Shown: one piece after another, positions 21,724 through 48,486 of the stretch
Layout: each line of letters starts with the position of its first letter
Position numbering within the stretch: the stretch's first letter is position 1
Source: an uncultured Corynebacterium sp.
Lineage (GTDB): Bacteria > Actinomycetota > Actinomycetes > Mycobacteriales > Mycobacteriaceae
Length of the DNA stretch: 64,000 bases
NCBI RefSeq assembly: GCF_946222835.1
Contig: NZ_CAMIHD010000002.1
Span: forward strand, 45,114 to 109,113
Direction of reading: 5' to 3'
The notes under the pieces: model-generated
What the model was told of the DNA's origin: nothing
Seen by the model: only the letters and a program-made list of their open reading frames with translations
Databases searched by the model: none
Program-made: the position numbers and the translations under genes

Positions 21724-24558
21724 GTGCCCGGAAAGCTACGTGTTCACGAGCTCGCAAAGCAGCTCGGAGTAACCAGCAAGGAACTGCTCGCCACCCTGAA
21801 AGAACAGGGTGAGTTTGTAAAGACTGCTTCTTCCACCATCGAACCGCCGGTGGTTAAGAAGATGCGAGCTCATTATGAAGCACAGTCCGGCGGCGATGAT
21901 GCCGCCGAGAAGAAGCAAGACAATAAGCCTGCCAAGGGTGCCGCTAAGAGCACCGCAAAGGCGAGCGCCCCTAAGCCGGGTGCGAAGTCTGCCGCCCCTA
22001 AGCCGGGCGCAGAGGCGCCAAAGCCAGGCGCGAAGGCCGCTGCACCGAAGCCTGGCCAGGGCGCACCGAAGCCGGGACAGGGTGCTGCTGCTAAGCCCGG
22101 TGCAAAGCCAGCTGCCCCGAAGCCGGGCGCACAGGCCCCGAAGCCTGGTGCTAAGCCTGCTGCACCGAAGCCTGGCCAGGGCGCACCGAAGCCAGGACAG
22201 GCTGGCGGCAAGAAGTCGGGCGAGCGCCCGACCCCAGGCAATTCCATGCCTCGTCCAATGCCGAAGCCAGGCGGTTCCCGTCGCGTAGCCAATAACCCGT
22301 TCTCCACGGGTGGCGGCGACAACCGTCCGGGCCCCCGCCCAGGCGGCTCCAAGGGGCAGCGTGGCGGCAATAAGCCAGGCGATAACCGCGGTAAGCGCGG
22401 TGGCCAGAACGAGGGCGGAAATAACCGCCAGGGTGGCAATAACCAGGGTGGCGGCGGTCGTCGTCCATCCCCGGCCATGATGCCGTCCCACCCGAACCCT
22501 GCGTCGATGCCGTCTAAGGCACCGAGCGGCGGTGGACGTGGTGGTCGCGGTCGAGGCGGTCGCGGTGGTCCGAGTCACGGTGGCCCAGGTGGTGGCCGTC
22601 CAGGCGGTTTCCGCGGAGGCGGACGCGGCGGACGTCGCGGCGGCACCGCGGGTGCATTCGGCCGCCCAGGTGGCGCTCCACGTAAGGGCAAGAAGTCCAA
22701 GCGTCAGAAGCGCCATGAGTACGAGGAGCAGCAAAAGCATGTCGTAGGCGGCGTGCGCTTGCCAGACGGCAAGGGCCAGACCGTCCGCCTGCGTCGTGGC
22801 GCATCCCTATCTGACTTCGCCGAGAAGATCGGCGCGGATCCAGCAGCACTGGTGCAGGCACTGTTCAACCTCGGTGAAATGGTGACGGCAACCGCTTCCG
22901 TATCGGAAGATACGCTGCAGCTGCTTGGCTCCGAGATCAACTACAACGTCGAGGTCGTCTCCCCTGAGGACGAGGACCGCGAGCTGCTCGAGTCCTTCGA
23001 CCTGAAGTTCGGCGAGGACGAAGGCGACGAGGAAGCACTGGAGAATCGTCCTCCAGTCGTCTCCGTTATGGGTCACGTTGACCACGGTAAGACCCGCCTG
23101 TTGGACGCCATCCGTAAGACCAACGAGGGCGCCCGCGAGGAAGGCGGTATCACCCAGGGCATTGGTGCCTACCAAACCACGGTGGACGTGGACGGCGAGC
23201 GCACCATCACCTTCCTGGATACCCCGGGCCACGAGGCCTTTACCGCCATGCGTGCCCGTGGTGCTAAGTCCACCGACTTGGCCATCCTCGTGGTTGCCGC
23301 CGATGACGGCGTCATGCCACAGACCGTGGAGGCCATCAACCACGCCAAGGCTGCCGATATTCCGGTCGTCGTGGCTGTGAACAAGGTGGATAAGCCGGAA
23401 GCTCAGCCGGATAAGATCCGTGGCCAGCTCACCGAGTACGGCCTGGTTCCGGAAGAGTACGGCGGTGACACCATGTTCGTGGATATCTCCGCGAAGCAGG
23501 GCAAGAACATTGACCAGTTGCTTGAGTCGGTCATCCTGACCGCGGATGCCGCCTTGGAGCTGACCGCTAACCCGGACATGGACGCACAGGGCGTGGCCAT
23601 TGAGTCGCACCTGGATCGCGGCCGTGGTCCGGTGGCAACGGTCATCATTCAGCGCGGTACCTTGCACGTGGGTGACTCAATCGTCGTCGGTGATGCGCAC
23701 GGTCGTGTCCGCCGCATGCTCGATGAGTTCGGCGAAGACGTCAAAGAGGCTGGCCCATCCCGTCCGGTGCAGGTCCAGGGCCTGTCCGGTGTGCCGGGTG
23801 CAGGCGATAACCTGCTCGTGGTGGAAGATGACCGCGTCGCCCGCCAGATTGCTAACCAGCGTGATGCGCGCAAGCGCTCTGCCCTGCAGGCCAAGCAGCG
23901 AAAGCGCGTCTCCCTGGAGGATCTGGACAAGGTATTGCAGGAGACTTCGACCCTCAACCTCATCCTCAAGGGCGACAACGCCGGTTCCGTCGAGGCACTG
24001 GAAGATGCCCTGCTGGATATCAAGACCGAGGACGAAGTCGAGCTCAACATCATCGACCGTGGTGTCGGTGCTGTGACCGAGACCAACGTATCTCTCGCAG
24101 CGGCTTCCGACGCCGTCATTATTGCCTTCAACACTCGTGCGGAAGGCAAGGCAACGGAGATGGCTACCCAAGAGGGCGTGGATATTCGTTACTACACGAT
24201 CATCTACAAGGCCATCGAAGAGGTCGAGGCTGCGCTCAAGGGCATGCTCAAGCCGATTTACGAGGAACGCGACACCGGTGCTGCCGAAATCCGCGCCCTG
24301 TTCAAGTCCTCCGCGGTGGGTACCATCGCCGGCTGCATGGTTACCGAGGGCAAGGTTGTCCGCAACGGCAAGGTTCGCCTGCTGCGCGATAACAACGTCA
24401 TCACTGCCGACGCCAAGATTGAATCCTTGCGCCATGAAAAAGATGACGCAACCGAAATCAAGGCCGGCTACGAGTGCGGTATGGTGCTCTCTTACCCGGA
24501 TATTCAGGTAGGCGACATCATCCAGGCCTACGAAGAGGTCGAGGTTCCGCGTACCTAG
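21724..24558 (+). CDS. infB: translation initiation factor IF-2
   Basis: GTG start. The N-terminus has a Pro/Ala/Lys repeat region, and the G-domain carries GHVDHGKT and DTPGH motifs. 944 aa. Confidence 0.95.
22039..22200 (+). repeat. in-frame tandem repeat (about 120-bp period) inside infB N-terminal domain
   Basis: GCTGCACCGAAGCCTGGCCAGGGCGCACCGAAGCC(G/A)GGACAGG occurs at 22039-22080 and again at 22159-22200. It encodes repeated [13 protein letters not shown] units. Confidence 0.7.
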
Positions 24559-24573
24559 TCCGCAAGCGGCGTA

Positions 24574-24626
24574 AATAAAATCGCCAGGTGTTTCCCCGAT
24601 TGGGGAAGCCCTGGCGATTTTATTTG
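24574..24626. terminator. bidirectional Rho-independent terminator after infB
   Basis: AATAAAATCGCCAGG ... CCTGGCGATTTTATTT with an inner TTCCCCGATTGGGGAA hairpin, flanked by A-tract and T-tract. Confidence 0.75.
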
Positions 24627-24687
24627 CAGCTTCTGCTGAACTTTAGTATTTAAACTATCTAGACAGGTTTACGACAAGTTGGGTTTG

Positions 24688-25128
24688 CTAATGCGTGCCT
24701 TGTTTAGCAGAGAAGTTGAGGAATGCAAGAAATTTTTCGGCCTTGATTTGGGGCTCACCAAGCAGGTCGAATACCCAGTCCTCAAGTGGGAGCATTTCCT
24801 TGTTGCCATCGTTGAACCGAAGGCCGATACTATTTTCCGTAGCCTCGCCGTGGGCCAAGTCCGACCACGTTCCAGTGCGTTTCGAAAGTAGCCATTGGCC
24901 CAAAACGTAGGTGATTCCTATTCTTCCTTCTTCGGCTTTTGTGCTGGAAGTGAGCAACCTGTGCAGTACCACTTCACTAATCTGTTCTTGATCGTTTAGC
25001 CACTCTTGCGTGAGTTTAGCCCTTTCGAGGCAGCTTGCTGCTTTGTTCGGAGCATCGGCGTGAAACTCATTTAAAGGCTGGGGCGTGACGCTCGCTGTTT
25101 CTGGCTTAGATTGGTTTTGGTCTTGCAA
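24688..25128 (-). CDS. hypothetical acidic cytoplasmic protein (island gene 3), TTG start
   Basis: 146-aa ORF starting at TTG, 6 nt after the stop of the upstream gene. An AAGGA SD lies 9 nt upstream, embedded in the 3' end of that gene. No signal peptide. It sits in the low-GC region. Confidence 0.5.
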   Translation of the reverse strand: MQDQNQSKPETASVTPQPLNEFHADAPNKAASCLERAKLTQEWLNDQEQISEVVLHRLLTSSTKAEEGRIGITYVLGQWLLSKRTGTWSDLAHGEATENSIGLRFNDGNKEMLPLEDWVFDLLGEPQIKAEKFLAFLNFSAKQGTH

Positions 25129-25131
25129 ATC

Positions 25132-25410
25132 CTAGGTCCTTAGATGCCATACTCCGTTTCCCCAGTTGCTTTCGTAATTGCAACTTGCTCTTCTCGCCCA
25201 ATTAGCTGTCGCTGGGTCTTTACGTAACTCCTTCAGCGATCTTTCACACTGATCTTTTGTGTCATAAAGGAAGTTTCCGATGTCGGCGGTGGCAATATTT
25301 GAGGAAAGAAGGAGGGAAAATGCTGATACAATCGCGATGATTAGGGTCCTCATTCTGCTGCGTGTATCTAGCATTCTTGAATACCGTCCATTCGCTTTGT
25401 CGGAGACCAT
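25132..25410 (-). CDS. small secreted protein (island gene 2), signal peptide, two Cys in a mature ~55-aa peptide
   Basis: ATG with an AGGA SD 8 nt upstream. Signal peptide MRTLIIAIVSAFSLLLSSNIATA. The mature part contains C...C (DQCERSL ... RASCNYESNW). Confidence 0.5.
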   Translation of the reverse strand: MVSDKANGRYSRMLDTRSRMRTLIIAIVSAFSLLLSSNIATADIGNFLYDTKDQCERSLKELRKDPATANWARRASCNYESNWGNGVWHLRT

Positions 25411-25536
25411 TCAAAGTTCCTCCGCGAATGTGCTTTTACCAACAGGCATTGTGTGTCGAAATCAAATGCAACGATTACTTTGACGTTCATATCAAAATCG
25501 CAATCGTTATAGACTTGAATTGCGCCCTTTTCCTTC

Positions 25537-25797
25537 TCAGAATGAATGCAAGCAGGAACAGGATCTCCCGGGCTTCTTTCCCCCTGTGGAATATGGTTGC
25601 AGGCTTGGGGCGCCGTCAGAATCTACATTGAGAATGACGAATTGAGGGGGATCGTTAAGCGTTTCATTTGTGGCAGAGGCTGGAGGGACTGCAAAGCCGC
25701 CGAGGATACAAGCGGCGGTAGTGATCGATGCGGCTATTTTATAAGGTTTCACGTTTCTCCATTCAAGCTCGTGGTGGGGTGAAACACTTTTGACCAT
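25537..25797 (-). CDS. possible small secreted protein (island gene 1)
   Basis: 86-aa ORF with hydrophobic signal-like segment KIAASITTAACILGGFAVPPASA and a C-terminal CSC. It has no clear SD, so this is a weaker call. Confidence 0.3.
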   Translation of the reverse strand: MVKSVSPHHELEWRNVKPYKIAASITTAACILGGFAVPPASATNETLNDPPQFVILNVDSDGAPSLQPYSTGGKKPGRSCSCLHSF

Positions 25798-25991
25798 AGT
25801 TTCGGAAACGTTTTAATTCAAGGGGTCCATAAGATATATATATGGTTTTATTGCATGTTCGAGATCCTCAGAATTGCCTTCATGTGCAGTTAATTTTCTG
25901 CCACAGGACATGCATGCGGAGTAATGTAAGATGGACACAATTTTATAGATCTTGGTAGAGATCGATAGTTCGACGGAGAGGGAGTTGCACC

Positions 25992-26435
25992 ATGGTTGAC
26001 CACGCGCGTGCTGCACGAATGGCCAAGCGTATTAAGGAAATCGTGGCGAGTGCCATAGAACGCGAGATCAAGGATCGCCGCCTCGAGTTGGTGACCATCA
26101 CAGATACTCGAGTGACAGGCGACCTGCACGATGCCACCGTTTTTTATACCGTGCGCGGAAAAGACATTGACTCCGAGCCAGACTTCGCACAAGCAGAAGA
26201 AGCCCTCAAGCGCGCTAAAGGTCAGCTGCGCAAGATTGTGGGCGATCAACTCTCGGTGCGGTTTACCCCGACGCTAACCTTCGAGGTCGATACTGTTCCC
26301 GAGGCTTCTGCTCATATGGAAGAGCTTTTGGCCCGTGCTCGCGCCCGCGATGAAGAACTAGCAAAGCTGAAGGAAATCGCCCAGCCGGCAGGGGATGCGA
26401 ACCCGTATAAGACCTCCGATGAAGACGAGGCTTAA
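25992..26435 (+). CDS. rbfA: ribosome-binding factor A
   Basis: 147-aa ORF with conserved RbfA KH-like core ([20 protein letters not shown]) and a GGAGAGGGAG SD. Confidence 0.9.
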
Positions 26436-27398
26436 GTGACTAAGAAGCAATACCAGCCGGCAGTTGCCGCCTTGCATGATGCTCATAGCATCTGCATTGT
26501 GACGCACCTGCGGCCGGATGCCGATGCCATCGGCTCTGCTGCGGCGTTGCTGCTCGCGCTGCGCCAACGGGGCAAAGATGTGTGTGCCGTTGTGGGCCAG
26601 GAGCGGGAAATTTCCCGTAACCTTTACACCATTCCTGCCGCCGACGACGTCACCACTAGTCGTGAGCTGCCGGAAGGCTATGACCTCTACGTCACCGTTG
26701 ATTGTGGTTCTTTAGACCGGACGGGCTTTTTTGCAGATCGGATTGAGCAGCTAGCCCAGCAGGGCCGGGTTCTGTGCATTGACCATCATTCTTCTAATCC
26801 AGGGTTTGGTGCCATCAATGTGGTAGACACTGAATGTGAATCCACCACCGTGGTGTTGCTGAGCATCTTGGATTCATTGGAGATTCAAATTGACTGTCAT
26901 ATTGCACACTGCTTATATGCCGGTTTGATGACCGATACTGGCAGCTTCCGCTGGGGTAGGCCGGCTATGCACGATATTGCCACCCGCCTCATGCACTACG
27001 ATCTCGATACCAAGCAGATCGCAGCTGACCTTTTAGATTCCACCACACCGGACGATCTTCAGATGATCGGTAGGGTACTGGCCGGTTTGGGCCTCGAAGA
27101 AGCAGGGGAGCACACCCTAGGCATTCTCGTCGCGCGTCTGGAAGATATCCAGGGACACTCCGATTCGGCTGTCGAATCACTAGTGGAGTTCGTTCGCGCG
27201 CTAGAAGGAACCACCGTCGGCGTGGTGTTTAAGGAACAAGCTCCGGAGGTGTGGGCAGTTTCCTTGCGTTCTTCTCGCATCGATTGTTCTTCGGTGGCGC
27301 TAACCTTCGGCGGTGGCGGACATGTACCGGCCGCGGGCTATACCGCTCACGGGGCTCCGGAAAAAATTATTAAGGAATTGGTGGCCGCTATCCAATGA
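26436..27398 (+). CDS. nrnA: DHH-DHHA1 phosphoesterase (NrnA/CnpB-like nanoRNase / pAp / c-di-AMP phosphodiesterase)
   Basis: Motifs VTHLRPDADAIGS and DHHSSN, plus a C-terminal GGGH (DHHA1). Its position after rbfA matches Mtb Rv2837c. Confidence 0.8.
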   Translation: MTKKQYQPAVAALHDAHSICIVTHLRPDADAIGSAAALLLALRQRGKDVCAVVGQEREISRNLYTIPAADDVTTSRELPEGYDLYVTVDCGSLDRTGFFADRIEQLAQQGRVLCIDHHSSNPGFGAINVVDTECESTTVVLLSILDSLEIQIDCHIAHCLYAGLMTDTGSFRWGRPAMHDIATRLMHYDLDTKQIAADLLDSTTPDDLQMIGRVLAGLGLEEAGEHTLGILVARLEDIQGHSDSAVESLVEFVRALEGTTVGVVFKEQAPEVWAVSLRSSRIDCSSVALTFGGGGHVPAAGYTAHGAPEKIIKELVAAIQ

Positions 27399-28735: not shown

Positions 28736-28821
28736 CTGCGCTAAAGTGGGCGTGTTGATACTCTCGCGCGGTGTGCGTCTCCGTGCAGCGCGCAGCTTCT
28801 AGAAAGGCAGGTGAGAAACCT

Positions 28822-29634
28822 ATGCCAACAGTGTGGGCGGTTTCTGACCTGCATGGAGCGGTCAGTGCCAATAGTAAACGCATTGATCGGCTTACTCCGC
28901 CCGATCCCGCGGATTGGCTCATTGTGGCCGGGGACGTTGCAGAGCGCACCGATCTCATCGTTCGCATTTTGCGCCAGCTCAATGATCGCTATGCCAGGGT
29001 CATCTGGGTGCCGGGCAACCATGAGTTATTCTCTCGCTCCCAGGATCGGTATCAAGGTCGAGATAAGTATGCGCACCTGGTGGAAAGGTGCAGGGAAATT
29101 GGAGTTATTACTCCAGAAGACCCGTATCCGGTATTTCACGGGACTACCATCGTTCCGCTATTTACTTTGTATGATTACAGTTTCCGTCCGCATGGCCTTA
29201 GCGTGGACGAAGCCATTGACGCGGCGCGCGCAAAACAACTGATGATGACCGATGAGTTCGCCATCGCCCCCTTCGTAGACGTGCGGGCGTGGTGTTGGGA
29301 CAGGTTGGCCTATTCCATCAAGCGCCTTTCCCGAGTACATGGTCCTACCGTGCTGGTTAACCATTGGCCGTTGGTCCAAGAACCAACCATGCTGTTGCGC
29401 TTTCCGGAAATTGCCTTGTGGTGCGGAACCAGGCATACGCGGTCGTGGCCGCGGCGCTATAACGCGGAGTCGGTCATCTATGGGCACCTGCATATGCCGT
29501 CTCGCATGAATGTGGATGGCGTTGACCACATCGAGACGTCATTGGGGTATCCACGCGAATGGCAGGGGCGCGACAGCGCCCAGGCGTGGCCGTATCCGGT
29601 ACTGCGTTCTTTTGAAGGGGAGGAGGCACGATGA
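28822..29634 (+). CDS. calcineurin-like metallophosphoesterase
   Basis: Motifs SDLHG, VAGDVAE and VPGNHE. I chose the start at the ATG with a purine-rich SD-like stretch (AAAGGCAGGTGAGAAACC). Its stop overlaps the pptT start (ATGATGA). Confidence 0.8.
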   Translation: MPTVWAVSDLHGAVSANSKRIDRLTPPDPADWLIVAGDVAERTDLIVRILRQLNDRYARVIWVPGNHELFSRSQDRYQGRDKYAHLVERCREIGVITPEDPYPVFHGTTIVPLFTLYDYSFRPHGLSVDEAIDAARAKQLMMTDEFAIAPFVDVRAWCWDRLAYSIKRLSRVHGPTVLVNHWPLVQEPTMLLRFPEIALWCGTRHTRSWPRRYNAESVIYGHLHMPSRMNVDGVDHIETSLGYPREWQGRDSAQAWPYPVLRSFEGEEAR

Positions 29635-42877: not shown

Positions 42878-45800
42878 ATGTCTGTCAAAAATGCCTCTTC
42901 GCGCGGGACGCGCCGAAAGTCGAATCGTTCACGGCCATCCGGCCGCAGCCGGTCCGGTGCTGGCATGCCGGAGACCTTGGCCATGACGTCTTCGCATCAG
43001 CGCGCAGCGGCGACCTCGCAGGAGCGCACGGGGAGTGCGTTCCGGGCCGTTGGCAAGGGCTTGGGCGCGGCATTTGGCGCCACGGCTCGCGGTATGGGAA
43101 ATATGGCGCGAGGCATAAGTCATGGAATGGCTGGGCTCAAGCCCAGCGAAGATGCATATGACACTAAGGAGTACGAGACGACGAGGGAGCCGGAAGAAAT
43201 TTCTGCACGCGGGGAGAAAAAGAAGCAAAGCAAGGTTACTCGTGCGCGCGACGTAGATACGGAAGAAGACTTTTCCGCTATGGAAGTGGGCGAGTCAGAA
43301 GCGCGCGGCATTCAGGTAAAAAATCCCGATGCGGTAGCACTGGTGCTTATCGGTATTGCCATCGTGCTCGCGGCCACGGTCTGGTTCGGTGTCGCCGGCC
43401 AAGTAGGCGCCTGGGTGGGTAACATCGTGCGCTATGTCATTGGTGCGGGCGCATGGGTGCTTCCGGTGGCCCTAGTAGCTTTGGCCATCGCCCTTATGAT
43501 GGATATTTCCGGCCCTGCGGGTCACTTCAAACCGCGCATTGTGGGCGGAGTCAGTATCATCGTCTTGGCCATGCTGAGCCTCATCCATATCTTTGCTGGA
43601 ACCCCTGAGCTTGGCTTTACCCCGGACAGCGCTGGTGGTGCTGGCGGTGTTATCGGCTACGGCATCGGTGGCCTTTTGGAAACTGCCTTCACGTCCTTCG
43701 TTGCCGTGCCATTGCTTTTTCTGGTGATAATTTACGGCGCTTTGCTGGTCACCGGGATTACCATCCGCGAGGCCTACGAGTTGGTGGCCGATGCCATTGG
43801 TGCGGCTTTCTCACGCTTCGGCGGAGCCGAGGATGACTTTTATGACGATGAAGGTGATGACCTTTATAGCCACGTCACCGGCGATATCGATGACATTGCA
43901 GAAGGCCGCGAGCGCAGCGAACGGCCCGCACGACCTGTGACCAAGCGCCGTTCCTCTGAACGTGGTGGAAGCCTACGCGCTTTCCGACGCTCCTCCGAAG
44001 ACCCTGCCCCGCATGGTTCCTCTTGTCCGGTAGATTCCCCCGCTGCGGCAGAGGAGGAACACGCAACCCGCACCTTCAGTGCGCCAAAGCGCGGTGGTTT
44101 CCAGACTGTATCCAACTCGGCCGATAAGCCGGCAGAGCGCGAGATGGGGGATACCGATGAGATCCCAGTGGTAGAAGACACCGCTGTTTCTTCGCCCGCT
44201 CAGCCAGGGTCCGCGGATCCGGAACCAACCCGTGATTTGGGCACCGCACGTCAGCGTCCTGCTTCTAATTCTTCTCGCTCTGCTGCCGCAGCGGGTTCCG
44301 CTGCAGGCTCCGCTGTGGGTTCGGTTACTGGCGCGGCGGCCGGCGCTGCTGGTGCGGCAAGTGGCACAGCCAAGACTGCTGCCGCCGGAGCTGCAGGTGC
44401 CGCTGGTGCGGCAGCAGCCGGTGCTGCTGCAGGTGCTGCCGGCGCCGCAGCGGAAGGAGGTGCGGATGCGGTGTCATCCGCACACGAGAAGGCTCGCCAA
44501 CTCTTCCGTGAGCGTTCCGGGCGCGACGCCACGACCGGCGCGCAAGTGGATAACGCTGAGCCTGCTCCCGAAACCGCAGGAGCGACGAACTCTACAGCTG
44601 CTCCTGCACCTGCTGCGCAGTTTGGTAACGAGAATTACGCGGTTCCCAGTACTGACTTGCTGACTCCGGGGACTCCGGCCAAAGAGCGTACCGAGATTAA
44701 TGACCGTATTATCGAGGCCATCACCGATGTCTTCGAAGAGTTCAAGGTGGATGCCCAAGTAACCGGCTTCAGCCGTGGTCCGACAGTGACCCGCTATGAA
44801 ATCGAGCTGGGGCCAGGCGTCAAGGTATCCAAGATTACGAACCTACAATCCAACTTGGCCTACGCTGTGGCCACGGATAATCTGCGCTTGTTGACGCCTA
44901 TTCCAGGCAAATCCGCAGTTGGTATCGAGGTTCCGAACCCCGACCGCGAAATGGTTCACCTGCGCGAGGTGCTGGATGCGCCAGCCATGACCAGCTCGCC
45001 AGACCCTATGCTCATCGGATTGGGCAAGGACATTGAAGGCGAATACACCTCCTTCTCAGTACAGAAAATGCCGCACTTGTTGGTCGCTGGTGCTACCGGT
45101 TCGGGTAAGTCCGCCTTCGTAAACTCCATGTTGGTCTCGCTGCTTACCCGCGCTACCCCAGAGCAGGTTCGCCTCATCCTGGTGGATCCAAAGATGGTGG
45201 AGCTTACCCCGTACGAGGGTATTCCGCACCTGATTACGCCCATCATCACTCAGCCAAAGAAGGCGGCGGCTGCCTTGCAGTGGCTGGTGGAGGAGATGGA
45301 GCAGCGCTACATGGATATGAAGGCTGCTCGTGTGCGCAAGATCGAGGACTATAACCGCAAGGTTGTCTCCGGTGAATACCAAGCGCCCGCAGGTTCCGAG
45401 CGCGAGGTTCGCCCGTACCCGTACATTGTCTGCGTCGTCGACGAGCTGGCCGACCTCATGATGACCGCGCCGAAGGAGATCGAGGACTCCATCGTCCGCA
45501 TCACCCAGAAAGCGCGTGCCGCCGGTATTCACCTCGTGCTGGCAACCCAGCGCCCGTCCGTGGACGTGGTTACCGGTTTGATCAAGACCAATGTGCCTTC
45601 GCGCTTGGCCTTCGCCACATCTTCGCTGACGGACTCTCGCGTCATCTTGGATCAAGGCGGAGCTGAGAAGCTCATTGGTATGGGCGATGGCCTCTTTATC
45701 CCGCAGGGTAAGCGGCCGGTGCGCATGCAGGGCGCGTTCGTTTCAGATGATGAGGTCATGGCCGTCGTTGATGCCGCGAAGTCTCAGGCTGCGCCGAACT

Positions 45801-46270
45801 ACACCGAGGGCGTGACTGAAGAAAAGCAGTCCGAGGCCAAGCAGGAAATCGACGAGGAAATTGGCAAGGATATGGATGACCTCCTCGAGGCCGTCGAGCT
45901 GGTTGTCACTGCCCAATTGGGATCTACTTCTATGTTGCAGCGTAAGCTGCGCATTGGCTTTGCCAAGGCTGGCCGCCTAATGGATCTCATGGAATCCCGT
46001 GGTGTTGTCGGTCCATCCGAGGGCTCAAAGGCCCGCGAAGTGCTTGTGAAGCCGGAAGAGCTCGATACCATCATTTGGATGATTAAGGGCGCCGATCCGG
46101 CTGAGGCCCCGAAGGAGATTCAGGAAGAGATGCAGCAGCAGGAGCAGAATGAAGCGGCAGCTTCCTCCGATGCCGATGCTCCCGCACCCTCCGATTCCTC
46201 CCCGCAAGGCGATGCTGGTGATACCCGTACCGTCCAGGCAACGTATAACCCTTCGGCAGGCGCCTTTTAA
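42878..46270 (+). CDS. ftsK: DNA translocase FtsK
   Basis: N-terminal TM segments, a long Ala/Gly-rich linker, a C-terminal motor with Walker A GATGSGKS and a gamma domain. 1130 aa. Confidence 0.9.
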
Positions 46271-46284
46271 GATCGTGTAGAGTT

Positions 46285-46430
46285 GGACGAGTCTTGGAGG
46301 GGAGTACCCCATTTTTCGGTATCGATCGTCAGCACGGAAGCGTCAAGCTCCCGGTCGTGCCGGCCCGGCTGCTTTGTAGTCGGGCGGGGGAGACCTCCGG
46401 TCATTTTGTTGTATCTTCGACCGGAGGGAT
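46285..46430 (+). ncRNA. candidate yybP-ykoY (Mn2+) riboswitch in the terC leader
   Basis: The 166-nt leader contains CUUGGAGGGGAGUACC (46293-46308), which resembles the conserved GGGGAGUA segment of the yybP-ykoY motif. It also contains a downstream GGUCAUUUUGUUGUAUC segment and extensive pairing potential. TerC-family genes are the most common downstream genes of this riboswitch. Confidence 0.5.
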
Positions 46431-46436
46431 GTACCA

Positions 46437-47558
46437 ATGCATGTGCCATTGTGGATCTGGGCGATTTCCATCGTCGTTATTTTGGGATTCTTTGTTTTTG
46501 ACTTCTACTCTCACGTGCGCACCCCGCACGAGCCAACGCTGAAGGAATCCGGGTTTTGGACCCTGTTCTATGTAGGTGTTGCTCTTCTCTTTGGTGCTGG
46601 TGTGTGGGTCATTTGGGACCACGAACACGGCATTCAATACCTCACGGGTTACGTGACCGAAAAGGCGCTATCAGTAGACAACCTCTTTGTCTTCGCGCTC
46701 ATCATGGGGGCCTTCAAAATCCCGCGCAAGTACCAGCAGAAGGTATTGCTCATCGGAATCGTCATTGCCTTGGCGTGCCGATTAGTATTTATCCTCTTGG
46801 GTGCTGCGGTCATTGCTGCTTGGTCCGATATTTTCTATCTCTTTGCACTATTTCTCATTTACACGGCGATTAAGCTTATCGTCGATGAGGTTCGCGATGC
46901 CCCTGAGACCGATCCCAATGACATGGGCATCATCAAACTGATCCGCAAGGTAGTCCACGTCACTCCGCGCTACCACGGGGATAAGCTCACGCACCGCGTG
47001 GAGAATTCCGCCGGTAAGCGTAAATTTGCCTTTACCCCGCTTTTTATTGCGCTGGTTTCCATTGGTCTCGTTGACGTGATGTTTGCCTTTGACTCCATTC
47101 CGGCTATCTACGGCATTACTTCAGAGGCGTTTTTGGTCTTTACCACCAACGCATTCTCCCTTATGGGATTGCGCCAGATGTATTTCCTGCTTGATGGCCT
47201 GCTTGATCGCCTGGTGTACCTGCCTTATGGTTTGGGCATCATCTTGGGCTTTATTGGTGTCAAGCTGTTATTCCACGCGCTGCATGAGAATAACTTGCCG
47301 TTTATTAACGGCGGCGAGAACGTGGAGGCCATTCCAGAGTTTTCCACTATCACCTCCCTCATAGTGATCGTAGGTGTACTGGTTATTACGGTGATCGCCT
47401 CGATTATTAAAAATAAGCGAGATGAGAACCAAGGCGGAGTGCCGGTATCGCACAATCACTTTGACTGGGACGAGGAAGGCAATAAGATCGTTCGCAATAA
47501 GAAGGGCGAAATCCTGGGCAAGGCCGAAGACCTGCCCAAAGAGGAATTGCCGCACTAA
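46437..47558 (+). CDS. TerC-family integral membrane protein
   Basis: 373-aa ORF with multiple TM helices, the TerC signature and a C-terminal cytoplasmic tail. Confidence 0.85.
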   Translation: MHVPLWIWAISIVVILGFFVFDFYSHVRTPHEPTLKESGFWTLFYVGVALLFGAGVWVIWDHEHGIQYLTGYVTEKALSVDNLFVFALIMGAFKIPRKYQQKVLLIGIVIALACRLVFILLGAAVIAAWSDIFYLFALFLIYTAIKLIVDEVRDAPETDPNDMGIIKLIRKVVHVTPRYHGDKLTHRVENSAGKRKFAFTPLFIALVSIGLVDVMFAFDSIPAIYGITSEAFLVFTTNAFSLMGLRQMYFLLDGLLDRLVYLPYGLGIILGFIGVKLLFHALHENNLPFINGGENVEAIPEFSTITSLIVIVGVLVITVIASIIKNKRDENQGGVPVSHNHFDWDEEGNKIVRNKKGEILGKAEDLPKEELPH

Positions 47559-47869
47559 AAGCGAGCGTTCACAGGATTCCATTCGCGGAAGCTATGGCCG
47601 GTGATGCAGCCGGCCTGATAAAATGGGTCTTTGTCCATTAGGGCGATGGCATCAGCAACCACGGCGTCGTCGTCAAGTGCCACGATGATAAGCGCGCCTC
47701 CCTTGGAATCTGTCAGGGGGCCGGTGGCAATAATGGTGCCCTCTTCAAAAAGCTGCGCGGTAAATTCGCGGTGCGCTGGGCGGGCCTTGGCGATCTCTGG
47801 ATTAGTGGGGTTGTAGTCGTAGCTAACTGCAAAATACTTCATGCTGTGCATTTTAGTTTGCAGGGGCAT
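47555..47869 (-). CDS. YciI-like small protein
   Basis: About 100-aa ORF, MKYFAVSYDY..., a YciI/DGPF-like fold signature. It converges on terC with a 4-nt overlap. Confidence 0.6.
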   Translation of the reverse strand: MPLQTKMHSMKYFAVSYDYNPTNPEIAKARPAHREFTAQLFEEGTIIATGPLTDSKGGALIIVALDDDAVVADAIALMDKDPFYQAGCITGHSFREWNPVNARF

Positions 47870-47886
47870 CTAAGCGCAGGCCCTTA

Positions 47887-48486
47887 GTGCTAACGGGTAG
47901 TATGTATAACGTGAATCAACCCGGAAAACAGTCAGCGCAATCCTCGGATGTGAATCCGCAGGTGTCCAAATGGAACCTGCCAAATATTCTCACGAGCCTG
48001 CGCATTCTATTCATTCCGGTATTTGCATGGCTGGTCATCGCAGACCATGAATGGTGGGCTTTTGGCCTATTTGCAGCGCTAATGTTGACCGATAAGCTCG
48101 ACGGCGACATTGCCCGCGCCCGCGGCCTTATCACTAACTTCGGCAAAATCGCCGATCCCATCGCGGATAAAGCGCTTATGACCACTGCACTGGTCTGCCT
48201 CAATATTATTGGGGTATTGCCGGTGTGGATTACTGTTGTCATCCTCATCCGTGAATTCGGTATCACCATCTGGCGAATGGTTTTGCTGCGCCGCGGAAAG
48301 GTAGTGCCTGCCTCCAAGGGAGGCAAGTTGAAGACCGTTCTGCAATCTGTGGCTGTCGGGCTGTACCTGTGGCCGCTGCCGGAGTGGATGAACCTACCTA
48401 CCTTCCTAATCATGCTGTTGGCAGCAGCGGTGACTGTGGTTACCGGCGTGCAGTATCTCATCGACGGCAAAAAGCAGAATAGCTAG
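47887..48486 (+). CDS. pgsA: CDP-diacylglycerol--glycerol-3-phosphate 3-phosphatidyltransferase
   Basis: CDP-alcohol phosphatidyltransferase motif DKLDGDIAR...G...D...D with 4 TM helices. Confidence 0.85.
   Translation: MLTGSMYNVNQPGKQSAQSSDVNPQVSKWNLPNILTSLRILFIPVFAWLVIADHEWWAFGLFAALMLTDKLDGDIARARGLITNFGKIADPIADKALMTTALVCLNIIGVLPVWITVVILIREFGITIWRMVLLRRGKVVPASKGGKLKTVLQSVAVGLYLWPLPEWMNLPTFLIMLLAAAVTVVTGVQYLIDGKKQNS

Follow-up and report, generated by a model that had tools for sequence, protein, structure and literature searches.

A small, non-autonomous islet of low-GC DNA was found at the junction between infB and rbfA in an uncultured Corynebacterium sp., which in all likelihood reached this genome by homologous recombination between species. 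The DNA considered here, referred to as the window, is the 64,000-nucleotide stretch that spans positions 45,114 to 109,113 of contig NZ_CAMIHD010000002.1. It belongs to a member of the Corynebacterium tuberculostearicum complex; the RbfA it encodes shows no difference from the RbfA of C. pseudogenitalium ATCC 33035 or from multispecies Corynebacterium entries. The islet, or cassette, includes three minus-strand open reading frames (ORFs), namely ORF3, ORF2 and ORF1, in the order in which they would be read from a predicted operon.

Three steps are proposed. To begin with, as comparison of empty and filled sites shows, a 1.26-kb low-GC fragment inserted at a point 88 nt upstream of rbfA, just 3' of a hairpin that follows infB, leaving an 8-bp direct repeat; this took place in the C. 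striatum lineage. Subsequently, as donor-type single-nucleotide polymorphisms (SNPs) show, a double crossover in part of the C. tuberculostearicum complex exchanged the native 263-bp spacer for a segment of about 1.5 kb, which ran from the two final codons of infB through the striatum-type spacer and its insert to nucleotide 78 of rbfA. Finally, as diversity and tree incongruence show, the imported allele spread recently by recombination among lineages that are 2-5% apart in their flanks.

Composition of the infB-rbfA spacer

In the window, infB, encoding IF-2 (TIGR00487, 734 bits), occupies positions 21724-24558 and rbfA (PF02033) occupies positions 25992-26435, both on the plus strand, with a gene encoding a DHH/DHHA1 phosphoesterase lying directly 3' of rbfA (26436-27398). 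The spacer separating infB from rbfA (24559-25991) is 1433 bp long and presents a GC content of 0.468, as compared to a mean of 0.580 across the window. When 1.4-kb stretches were considered (SD 0.028), the spacer proved to be the minimum-GC stretch of the entire 64 kb, lying some 4 standard deviations (SD) under the mean, with the GC content of 300-nt segments within the spacer ranging from 0.43 to 0.52. Likewise, GC content at third codon positions (GC3) is 0.42-0.54 in the three insert ORFs and 0.58-0.70 in neighbouring genes. In terms of both GC and GC3, the insert is of foreign composition. The initial annotation, which had described about 1.4 kb of low-GC DNA between infB and rbfA and had proposed that GC content and codon usage be checked, was thus correct in treating this region as a compositional outlier, although the start it had assigned, 24627, falls within the spacer, which begins at 24559 and contains an insert proper that spans 24639-25903.

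A spacer of the C. striatum type containing an insert

The window spacer is a composite, consisting of two C. striatum-type ends and a 1265-bp insert between them. The left end (24559-24638, plus strand), which holds the hairpin, shares 95% identity with C. striatum ATCC 6940 (locus L019) and is not present in the other 74 cassette-free loci of the survey described below. The right end (25904-25991, plus strand), corresponding to the 88-nt region upstream of rbfA, shares 93% identity with the same strain. The striatum type of spacer is absent from all other species among the 80 surveyed. C. striatum ATCC 6940 itself contains no cassette and offers a precise empty site within a 168-bp spacer. 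There, the sequence reads GCAGCTTCTGCTG|CAGGAC and the octamer appears once; in filled sites (L081-L085 and the window), the octamer TTCTGCTG is found at both ends. Because of the empty site and the presence of the octamer at both ends of filled sites, the low-GC insert proper was assigned to 24639-25903 on the minus strand. Of the two copies of the 8-bp direct repeat, the left one, TTCTGCTG (24631-24638), marks the insertion point, while the right copy (25896-25903), which reads TTCTGCCA in the window, is counted within the insert.

Striatum-type sequence also extends into the genes on either side. Informative sites in the window are of the tuberculostearicum type in infB up to approximately position 24519, of the striatum type from 24552 to 26069, and of the tuberculostearicum type again from 26075. 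The left crossover maps to 24520-24551 (plus strand), within the last 39 nt of infB, where the two parental types do not differ in sequence. Beyond it, the final two infB codons are of the striatum type, such that the gene product ends in PRT* in the window and in PRD* in relatives. On the right, the striatum-type start of rbfA (25992-26074, plus strand) includes the first 78 nt of the gene, to position 26069, with the right crossover assigned to 26070-26074. Since donor-type SNPs reach into both infB and rbfA, the whole unit came by allelic replacement, with a segment of about 1.5 kb having been imported by double homologous crossover in place of the native spacer.

Filled sites in the striatum lineage were also found. 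A 91%-identical homologue of ORF1 (P0062) occupies the infB-rbfA junction of contigs L081-L084, whose flanks share 95.7% identity with C. striatum ATCC 6940 but only 70-80% with the window. Those parts of the cassette present on the striatum-like contigs are 91-94% identical to the window. Transfer from the striatum lineage to C. tuberculostearicum is supported by the empty site being found only in C. striatum, by the donor-type SNPs in infB and rbfA, and by the striatum-lineage copies being more diverged from one another, with the L081 and L085 loci being 92.4% identical and ORF1 showing a synonymous divergence (dS) of 0.07.

A separate observation concerns the 3' part of infB, where six synonymous third-position substitutions, all toward A/T, are found within 34 nt (24423-24456). 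These are private to the window in a comparison with L001, L006, L007, L012, L013 and both C. striatum-type sequences. A lineage that was not sampled may have contributed this cluster as a micro-recombination patch.

Distribution of the cassette in the genus Corynebacterium

A scan of one genome per species using RbfA as query yielded 80 Corynebacterium loci. The cassette was present in only five of these, all C. tuberculostearicum species clusters (L001-L005), in which ORF1-3 are found in a spacer of 1451-1460 bp. The remaining close relatives (L006-L014) contain a spacer of 260-265 bp of normal GC content and none of the three genes. In lineages L006-L010 and L012, whose flanks are equally similar to the window, an unrelated 263-bp spacer is present; sister lineages at only 2-4% flank divergence are without the cassette. 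No residual homology between the spacers of filled and empty alleles was detected. Most other species present a spacer of 105-270 bp, so that the earlier statement that infB is normally followed directly by rbfA in Corynebacteriales does not hold. The alignment of the junction against related genomes that the initial annotation had called for nonetheless supports its proposal of a horizontally acquired cassette in a conserved operon junction; relatives with the same spacer and conserved genes at normal GC, a pattern that would speak against acquisition, were looked for and not seen. What has to be revised is the notion of a simple insertion, as it was not the resident spacer that received the insert; rather, the whole spacer was exchanged for a C. 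striatum-type spacer already holding it. In the same manner, the 88 nt next to rbfA, previously taken as part of the insert, correspond to donor-type intergenic DNA.

The cassette structure recurs in 17 metagenome contigs, in three draft genomes and in two complete chromosomes. The 23 copies of the tuberculostearicum type share one and the same junction, and infB-rbfA is the single locus of all 28 copies seen. Three contigs from metagenome-assembled genomes labelled 'Clostridia bacterium' or 'uncultured Campylobacter sp.' (L033, L047 and L048) were noted to carry a Corynebacterium-type rbfA (75-86% identity), with these labels probably reflecting binning contamination in public records.

In other corynebacteria, the same junction holds different cargo. 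An IS481-like transposase gene is found in L070 (2413-3426), a low-GC ORF of 242 residues in C. amycolatum (L078, 2817-3545; L079, 2910-3638), which is truncated in C. vitaeruminis (L077), and two ORFs encoding membrane or secreted proteins in L043 (2307-3589). In L031, L038, L039 and L041, the junction is occupied by a metallophosphoesterase gene, which in the window sits downstream, at 28771-29634. The infB-rbfA junction is, therefore, a hotspot.

Recent spread of the imported allele

Among six cassette-bearing genomes, the tract of the window is 99.7-99.8% identical to that of the other carriers, corresponding to a divergence of about 0.2-0.3%. When individual segments of the tract were considered, diversity was 0-0.8% (ORF2, 0.0%; ORF1, 0.23%), as compared to 2-5.7% in flanking genes. 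Cassette carriers show zero diversity over positions 25992-26072 and 1.7% in the rest of rbfA. The native 263-bp allele presents a diversity of 2.8%, like that of its flanks. Neighbour-joining trees built from either flank show carriers scattered among non-carriers; in the right flank, the carrier L004 is just 0.5-0.6% from the non-carriers L008 and L009. Given the low diversity of the tract relative to its flanks and the interspersion of carriers and non-carriers, the spread of the cassette is recent. As such, the cassette allele is young and has moved between lineages by recombination, existing today as a presence/absence polymorphism.

The three ORFs of the cassette

The three small genes on the opposite strand that had been described earlier do correspond to three minus-strand ORFs; one of these, ORF3, is a pseudogene in this strain. 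ORF1 (24688-25128, minus strand) encodes an acidic protein of 146 residues (pI 5.1) from a TTG start, in which no signal peptide, transmembrane or hydrophobic segment was detected. It is found on more than 1000 contigs, annotated as 'hypothetical protein [Corynebacterium]', and is kept in every version of the cassette. ORF2 (25132-25410, minus strand) encodes a protein of 92 residues and is preceded by a GGAGGA Shine-Dalgarno sequence; ORF1 also has a Shine-Dalgarno sequence. The ORF2 protein begins with a long basic N-region followed by a hydrophobic core, resembling a signal peptide, with a predicted mature part of about 50 residues containing two cysteines. ORF2 is 100% conserved among six genomes. 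ORF2 and ORF1 lie in one frame and are separated only by TAG-GAT (25129-25134), after which comes the TTG start of ORF1. The idea that the two represent a recently split single gene is unsupported, with no fused version having been found in 23 copies, in all of which the TAG is invariant.

Intact forms of ORF3, as found in other strains (P0018/P0021), would span 25368-25797 on the minus strand, with a product of 127 residues from GTG at 25752, which is preceded by GGAGA, or of 142 residues from ATG at 25797. Like that of ORF2, the N-terminus of ORF3 resembles a signal peptide (MKPYKIAASITTAACILGGFAVPPASA|T), and its predicted mature part contains four cysteines and has a pI of 4.6. An (AT)n tract is found upstream of the gene, at about 25833-25843. 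In the window, an extra C in the run at 25580-25584 introduces a frameshift, such that a product of only 86 residues (25537-25797) is encoded. Of 23 copies examined, only 6 have an intact ORF3 and some 70% are broken, with at least four different lesions having been seen, the commonest being the loss of one G from the run at 25646-25650. Phase variation was considered as an explanation for these homopolymer frameshifts and rejected; since the runs comprise just 4-5 nt and lesions of a different nature are also seen, decay of ORF3 is the simpler reading.

Searches with the three ORF products, as had been proposed earlier, revealed no credible homologue outside the cassette's own family. Scans against Pfam, NCBIfam, PHROGs and PADLOC returned nothing above threshold, with no PADLOC defence-system model matching ORF1, ORF2 or ORF3 at E <= 1. 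Word-index protein searches returned only the cassette's own clusters, and sequence searches of the PDB gave no significant match. For ORF1, an exhaustive HMMER search of 1.84 billion representatives returned only the cassette family, a fragment of 48 residues and two repeat proteins. The latter two matches, to proteins with six fasciclin and eleven Calx-beta repeats, respectively, were rejected as spurious because the scores sum over repeats, different parts of ORF1 were matched and the two folds are unrelated. ORF2 gave no family match; a PDB sequence match to scorpion alpha-toxins (E = 1.3) was dismissed, as the cysteine framework is lacking.

ORF3 presents a weak resemblance to tendamistat, a member of the alpha-amylase inhibitor family (PF01356), scoring 17.4-17.6 bits (E = 0.004), below the Pfam gathering threshold of 25. 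In an ungapped alignment of 43 residues, three cysteines of ORF3 and tendamistat are found at identical spacing (C-15-C-17-C), and the match includes a 'VKV(V/I)' strand; the fourth cysteine of ORF3 lies at its C-terminus. The tendamistat sequence used was confirmed as that of a PF01356 protein. Profile-profile comparison with tendamistat homologues using hhalign gave a probability of only 14%. Like tendamistat and its family, the ORF3 protein is small, actinobacterial and predicted to be secreted. Unlike tendamistat, it includes an extra N-terminal segment of about 35 residues, the Trp-Arg-Tyr inhibitory triplet is gone, being replaced by Glu-Lys-Gly, and the gene is usually inactivated. The cysteine pattern of ORF3 is weakly tendamistat-like.

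Retention of ORF1

The copies from the striatum lineage are deletion derivatives. L081-L084 are without approximately 25135-25755 and L085 is without approximately 25097-25759, and the two deletions are independent. In both, ORF2 and nearly all of ORF3 are gone, while the region upstream of ORF3 and ORF1 are kept, with ORF1 now lying directly behind the former. The ratio of non-synonymous to synonymous divergence (dN/dS) for ORF1 is 0.37-0.65. The deletions that removed ORF2 and ORF3, the decay of ORF3 and the dN/dS values together suggest that ORF1 is the retained, selected payload and that ORF2 and ORF3, predicted to encode secreted proteins, are dispensable.

As the most likely function, though with low confidence, the layout of the cassette would point to a secreted effector or inhibitor pair together with a cytoplasmic partner kept as an orphan protective or immunity-like gene. 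A further extension of this idea, rather unlikely at present, is that ORF3-ORF2-ORF1 would constitute a new interference-competition module of skin corynebacteria, in which two small predicted disulfide-containing proteins, exported by a Sec-type route and including one with a tendamistat-like scaffold devoid of the amylase-binding triplet, would hit competitors while ORF1, kept selectively as an orphan, would offer protection as a protein of a new protective class. Were this so, the recent sweep of the allele across lineages would be explained. More speculative still, ORF1 could have a role in 30S maturation or in the initiation of translation, or the expression of infB or rbfA could be tuned by transcripts that run antisense from the islet.

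Transcription signals and the host operon

The left end of the spacer contains an inverted repeat (I1) of 24+24 nt (24573-24625, both strands), predicted to fold into a hairpin with energies of -50.3 kcal/mol on the plus strand and -42.6 kcal/mol on the minus strand (z = -9.2 and -8.2, respectively). An Rfam scan returned only a meaningless match to a miRNA model, on this hairpin. A terminator-like hairpin is present in the infB-rbfA gap wherever the spacer was read. The hairpin in the window would terminate transcription of both infB, on the plus strand, and the predicted cassette operon, on the minus strand. The bidirectional terminator that had been proposed as the left boundary of the insert is a stable hairpin on both strands and forms part of the imported striatum-type spacer.

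A candidate promoter for the cassette is found on the minus strand at 25793-25821, with TTGAAT (25821-25816) as the -35 element, a 17-nt spacer and TATGGT (25798-25793) as the -10 element, although it falls below the threshold of a consensus scan. The -10 sequence is conserved in all cassette versions; at -35, TTGAAT in the window is replaced by TTCAAT in L081-L084 and by TTTAAT in L085. The islet can be pictured as a single minus-strand operon, divergent from rbfA, convergent with infB and ending at the shared hairpin.

As to the host operon, the native region upstream of rbfA-nrnA was wholly replaced by that of the donor. In the window, rbfA-nrnA would be expressed from the donor-type 88-nt upstream region and infB would end at the donor hairpin. 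The ribosome-binding site of rbfA, GGAGAGGGAG, lies at 25975-25984 (plus strand); in a consensus scan, no promoter could be assigned with confidence. The 88-nt region includes a 20-bp unit, TTTATAGATCTTGGTAGAGA (25942-25961, plus strand), compared across the window, L001-L005 and L086-L102. The window and some of the metagenome copies contain a single unit, and most relatives contain two in tandem. This unit contains TATAGAT, a -10-like sequence, such that copy number might alter the expression of rbfA-nrnA.

In the native allele, a block conserved in L006-L018 is found within the approximately 110 nt upstream of rbfA (...ACGGGTTTTCATTG...CACTAAACTGGTGGTTTC...TACCG-loop-CGGTAATTT...). It holds a small hairpin, the stem of which is kept and the loop of which differs between species groups. 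This block, which may be an rbfA promoter or leader element, is wholly absent from the window allele.

Points against interspecies import and alternative explanations

Several observations weigh against the account given above. Genomes of the striatum lineage yielded only deletion derivatives and no complete copy with all three genes, so that the actual donor is an unsampled one; the striatum sequences known are 5-9% different from the tract of the window. The 8-bp repeat might have been left by transposition or might reflect microhomology. Plasmid and phage collections contained no match to the insert, either as DNA ('distant' mode) or as protein, and the proteins of the insert are without homologues in large protein databases. 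As regards the payload, evidence for selection on ORF1 is thin, consisting of 8 synonymous and 11-14 non-synonymous changes. No toxin or immunity domain was detected in ORF1-3 using Pfam, NCBIfam, PADLOC and the PDB, and single-sequence AlphaFold2 models were unusable, with pLDDT values of 44 for ORF1 and 34 for ORF3.

One could alternatively hold that what was selected is a new regulatory architecture, namely a strong infB terminator, a donor-type rbfA promoter or leader and divergent or antisense transcription, with the ORFs being passengers or non-coding. The complete replacement of an upstream region otherwise conserved in L006-L018, the variable copy number of the 20-bp unit upstream of rbfA, the usually broken state of ORF3 and the lack of homologues of the ORFs are all in line with such a scenario. 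Nonetheless, this architecture does not call for 1.26 kb of additional DNA, as the regulatory spacer of C. striatum ATCC 6940 is the same and contains no insert. Moreover, two independent deletions keep ORF1 open behind the promoter of ORF3, Shine-Dalgarno sequences precede ORF1 and ORF2, the N-termini of ORF2 and ORF3 resemble signal peptides, and dN/dS for ORF1 is below 1. Selection for regulation is, as such, an unlikely explanation.

Still to be weighed is a mobile element, either MITE-like or mobilised by a transposase, with the infB-rbfA spacer as its target and with a separate insertion event in every species. Although the 8-bp direct repeat TTCTGCTG at the junctions resembles a target-site duplication and an IS481-like transposase gene lies at the same junction in L070, no terminal inverted repeats joining the ends of the insert were found, and no gene for an integrase, transposase or relaxase was detected in the insert using Pfam, NCBIfam and PHROGs. 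The insert is, furthermore, present as a single copy in the 64-kb window, where no second copy was found, and at one locus in all 28 copies seen. Above all, independent insertion fails to explain why copies of the tuberculostearicum type contain a striatum-type spacer, together with SNPs of the same type in infB and rbfA. Such an element is an improbable source of the distribution seen, but possibly accounts for the original insertion in the striatum lineage. The prospect that the region is ancestral and was differentially lost in relatives, or that it reflects an assembly artefact, is consistent with the bare presence/absence pattern only and is highly implausible in the face of the foreign GC and GC3, a diversity about 10-fold lower than that of the flanks, empty alleles holding an unrelated spacer and not a deletion scar, and the recurrence of the structure in complete chromosomes, drafts and metagenome contigs alike. 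Import from the striatum lineage by recombination thus remains the favoured reading.

Other features of the window

The 5' third of infB (21900-22750) encodes the Ala/Pro/Gly/Lys-rich low-complexity segment at the N-terminus of IF-2 and presents a GC content of 69-71%. This region contains internal DNA repeats (self-matches at 21971-22204), and the length of the protein varies between species (937-944 residues). The stretch with the second-lowest GC content of the window (46100-48400; about 0.51-0.52) was considered as foreign DNA and rejected, as it contains ordinary genes, including those for TerC and a CDP-alcohol phosphatidyltransferase. CinA is encoded just downstream and FtsK upstream of this stretch, which shows no sign of foreign origin.

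Significance and relation to known systems

As an instance of horizontal gene transfer the islet is clear, though of an ordinary kind, and its route was resolved in unusual detail. It represents a natural case of a tiny islet without mobility machinery having crossed between two human skin commensals, from a C. striatum-like bacterium to the C. tuberculostearicum complex, by means of very short conserved stretches of essential genes, and having then spread in a recombining population. The native and donor upstream alleles offer a natural pair for studying the regulation of ribosome maturation genes. Since about 1.8 billion cluster representatives include no homologue of the payload proteins, a new family would be defined by any phenotype; should there be none, this would be an ordinary small island of hypothetical genes.

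In other bacteria, resident small genes are found between infB and rbfA, such as the DUF503 gene ylxP of Bacillus. The islet shares this position; however, ylxP-type genes are co-oriented with their neighbours, conserved and of normal composition, whereas the cassette is antisense, low in GC, lineage-specific and unrelated in sequence.

The closest parallel is offered by integration hotspots flanked by core genes and by genomic islets exchanged via recombination in their flanks (Oliveira, Touchon and Rocha 2017, PMC5635113). As in such hotspots, accessory genes lie between core genes and are subject to presence/absence polymorphism, cargo varies at the same junction, and an islet without mobility genes is accompanied by recombination tracts ending in the flanking core genes. 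Unlike these, the islet is tiny (1.3 kb, three ORFans) and lies inside the essential nusA-infB-rbfA cluster, the flanks of the two species are just 70-84% identical, and the recombining arms are very short, measuring about 80 nt in rbfA and no more than 39 nt in infB.

Homology-facilitated illegitimate recombination and short-arm double crossover, in which foreign DNA is joined via short homologous anchors (e.g., PMC3240628), present a second likeness, namely short homologous anchors in conserved genes. Here, however, both ends are homologous crossovers, as in ordinary allelic replacement, with an illegitimate or transpositional join, marked by the 8-bp repeat, being seen only at the older insertion in the striatum lineage.

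Finally, orphan immunity genes that persist after loss of the cognate secreted toxin, as in the T6SS (type VI secretion system) immunity arrays of V. cholerae (PMC5361080), resemble the cassette in pattern only. In the islet, too, the predicted secreted parts decay or are deleted, while ORF1, predicted to be cytoplasmic, is kept behind an upstream promoter; unlike those arrays, the islet contains no known toxin or immunity domain and lies outside of any secretion-system context.

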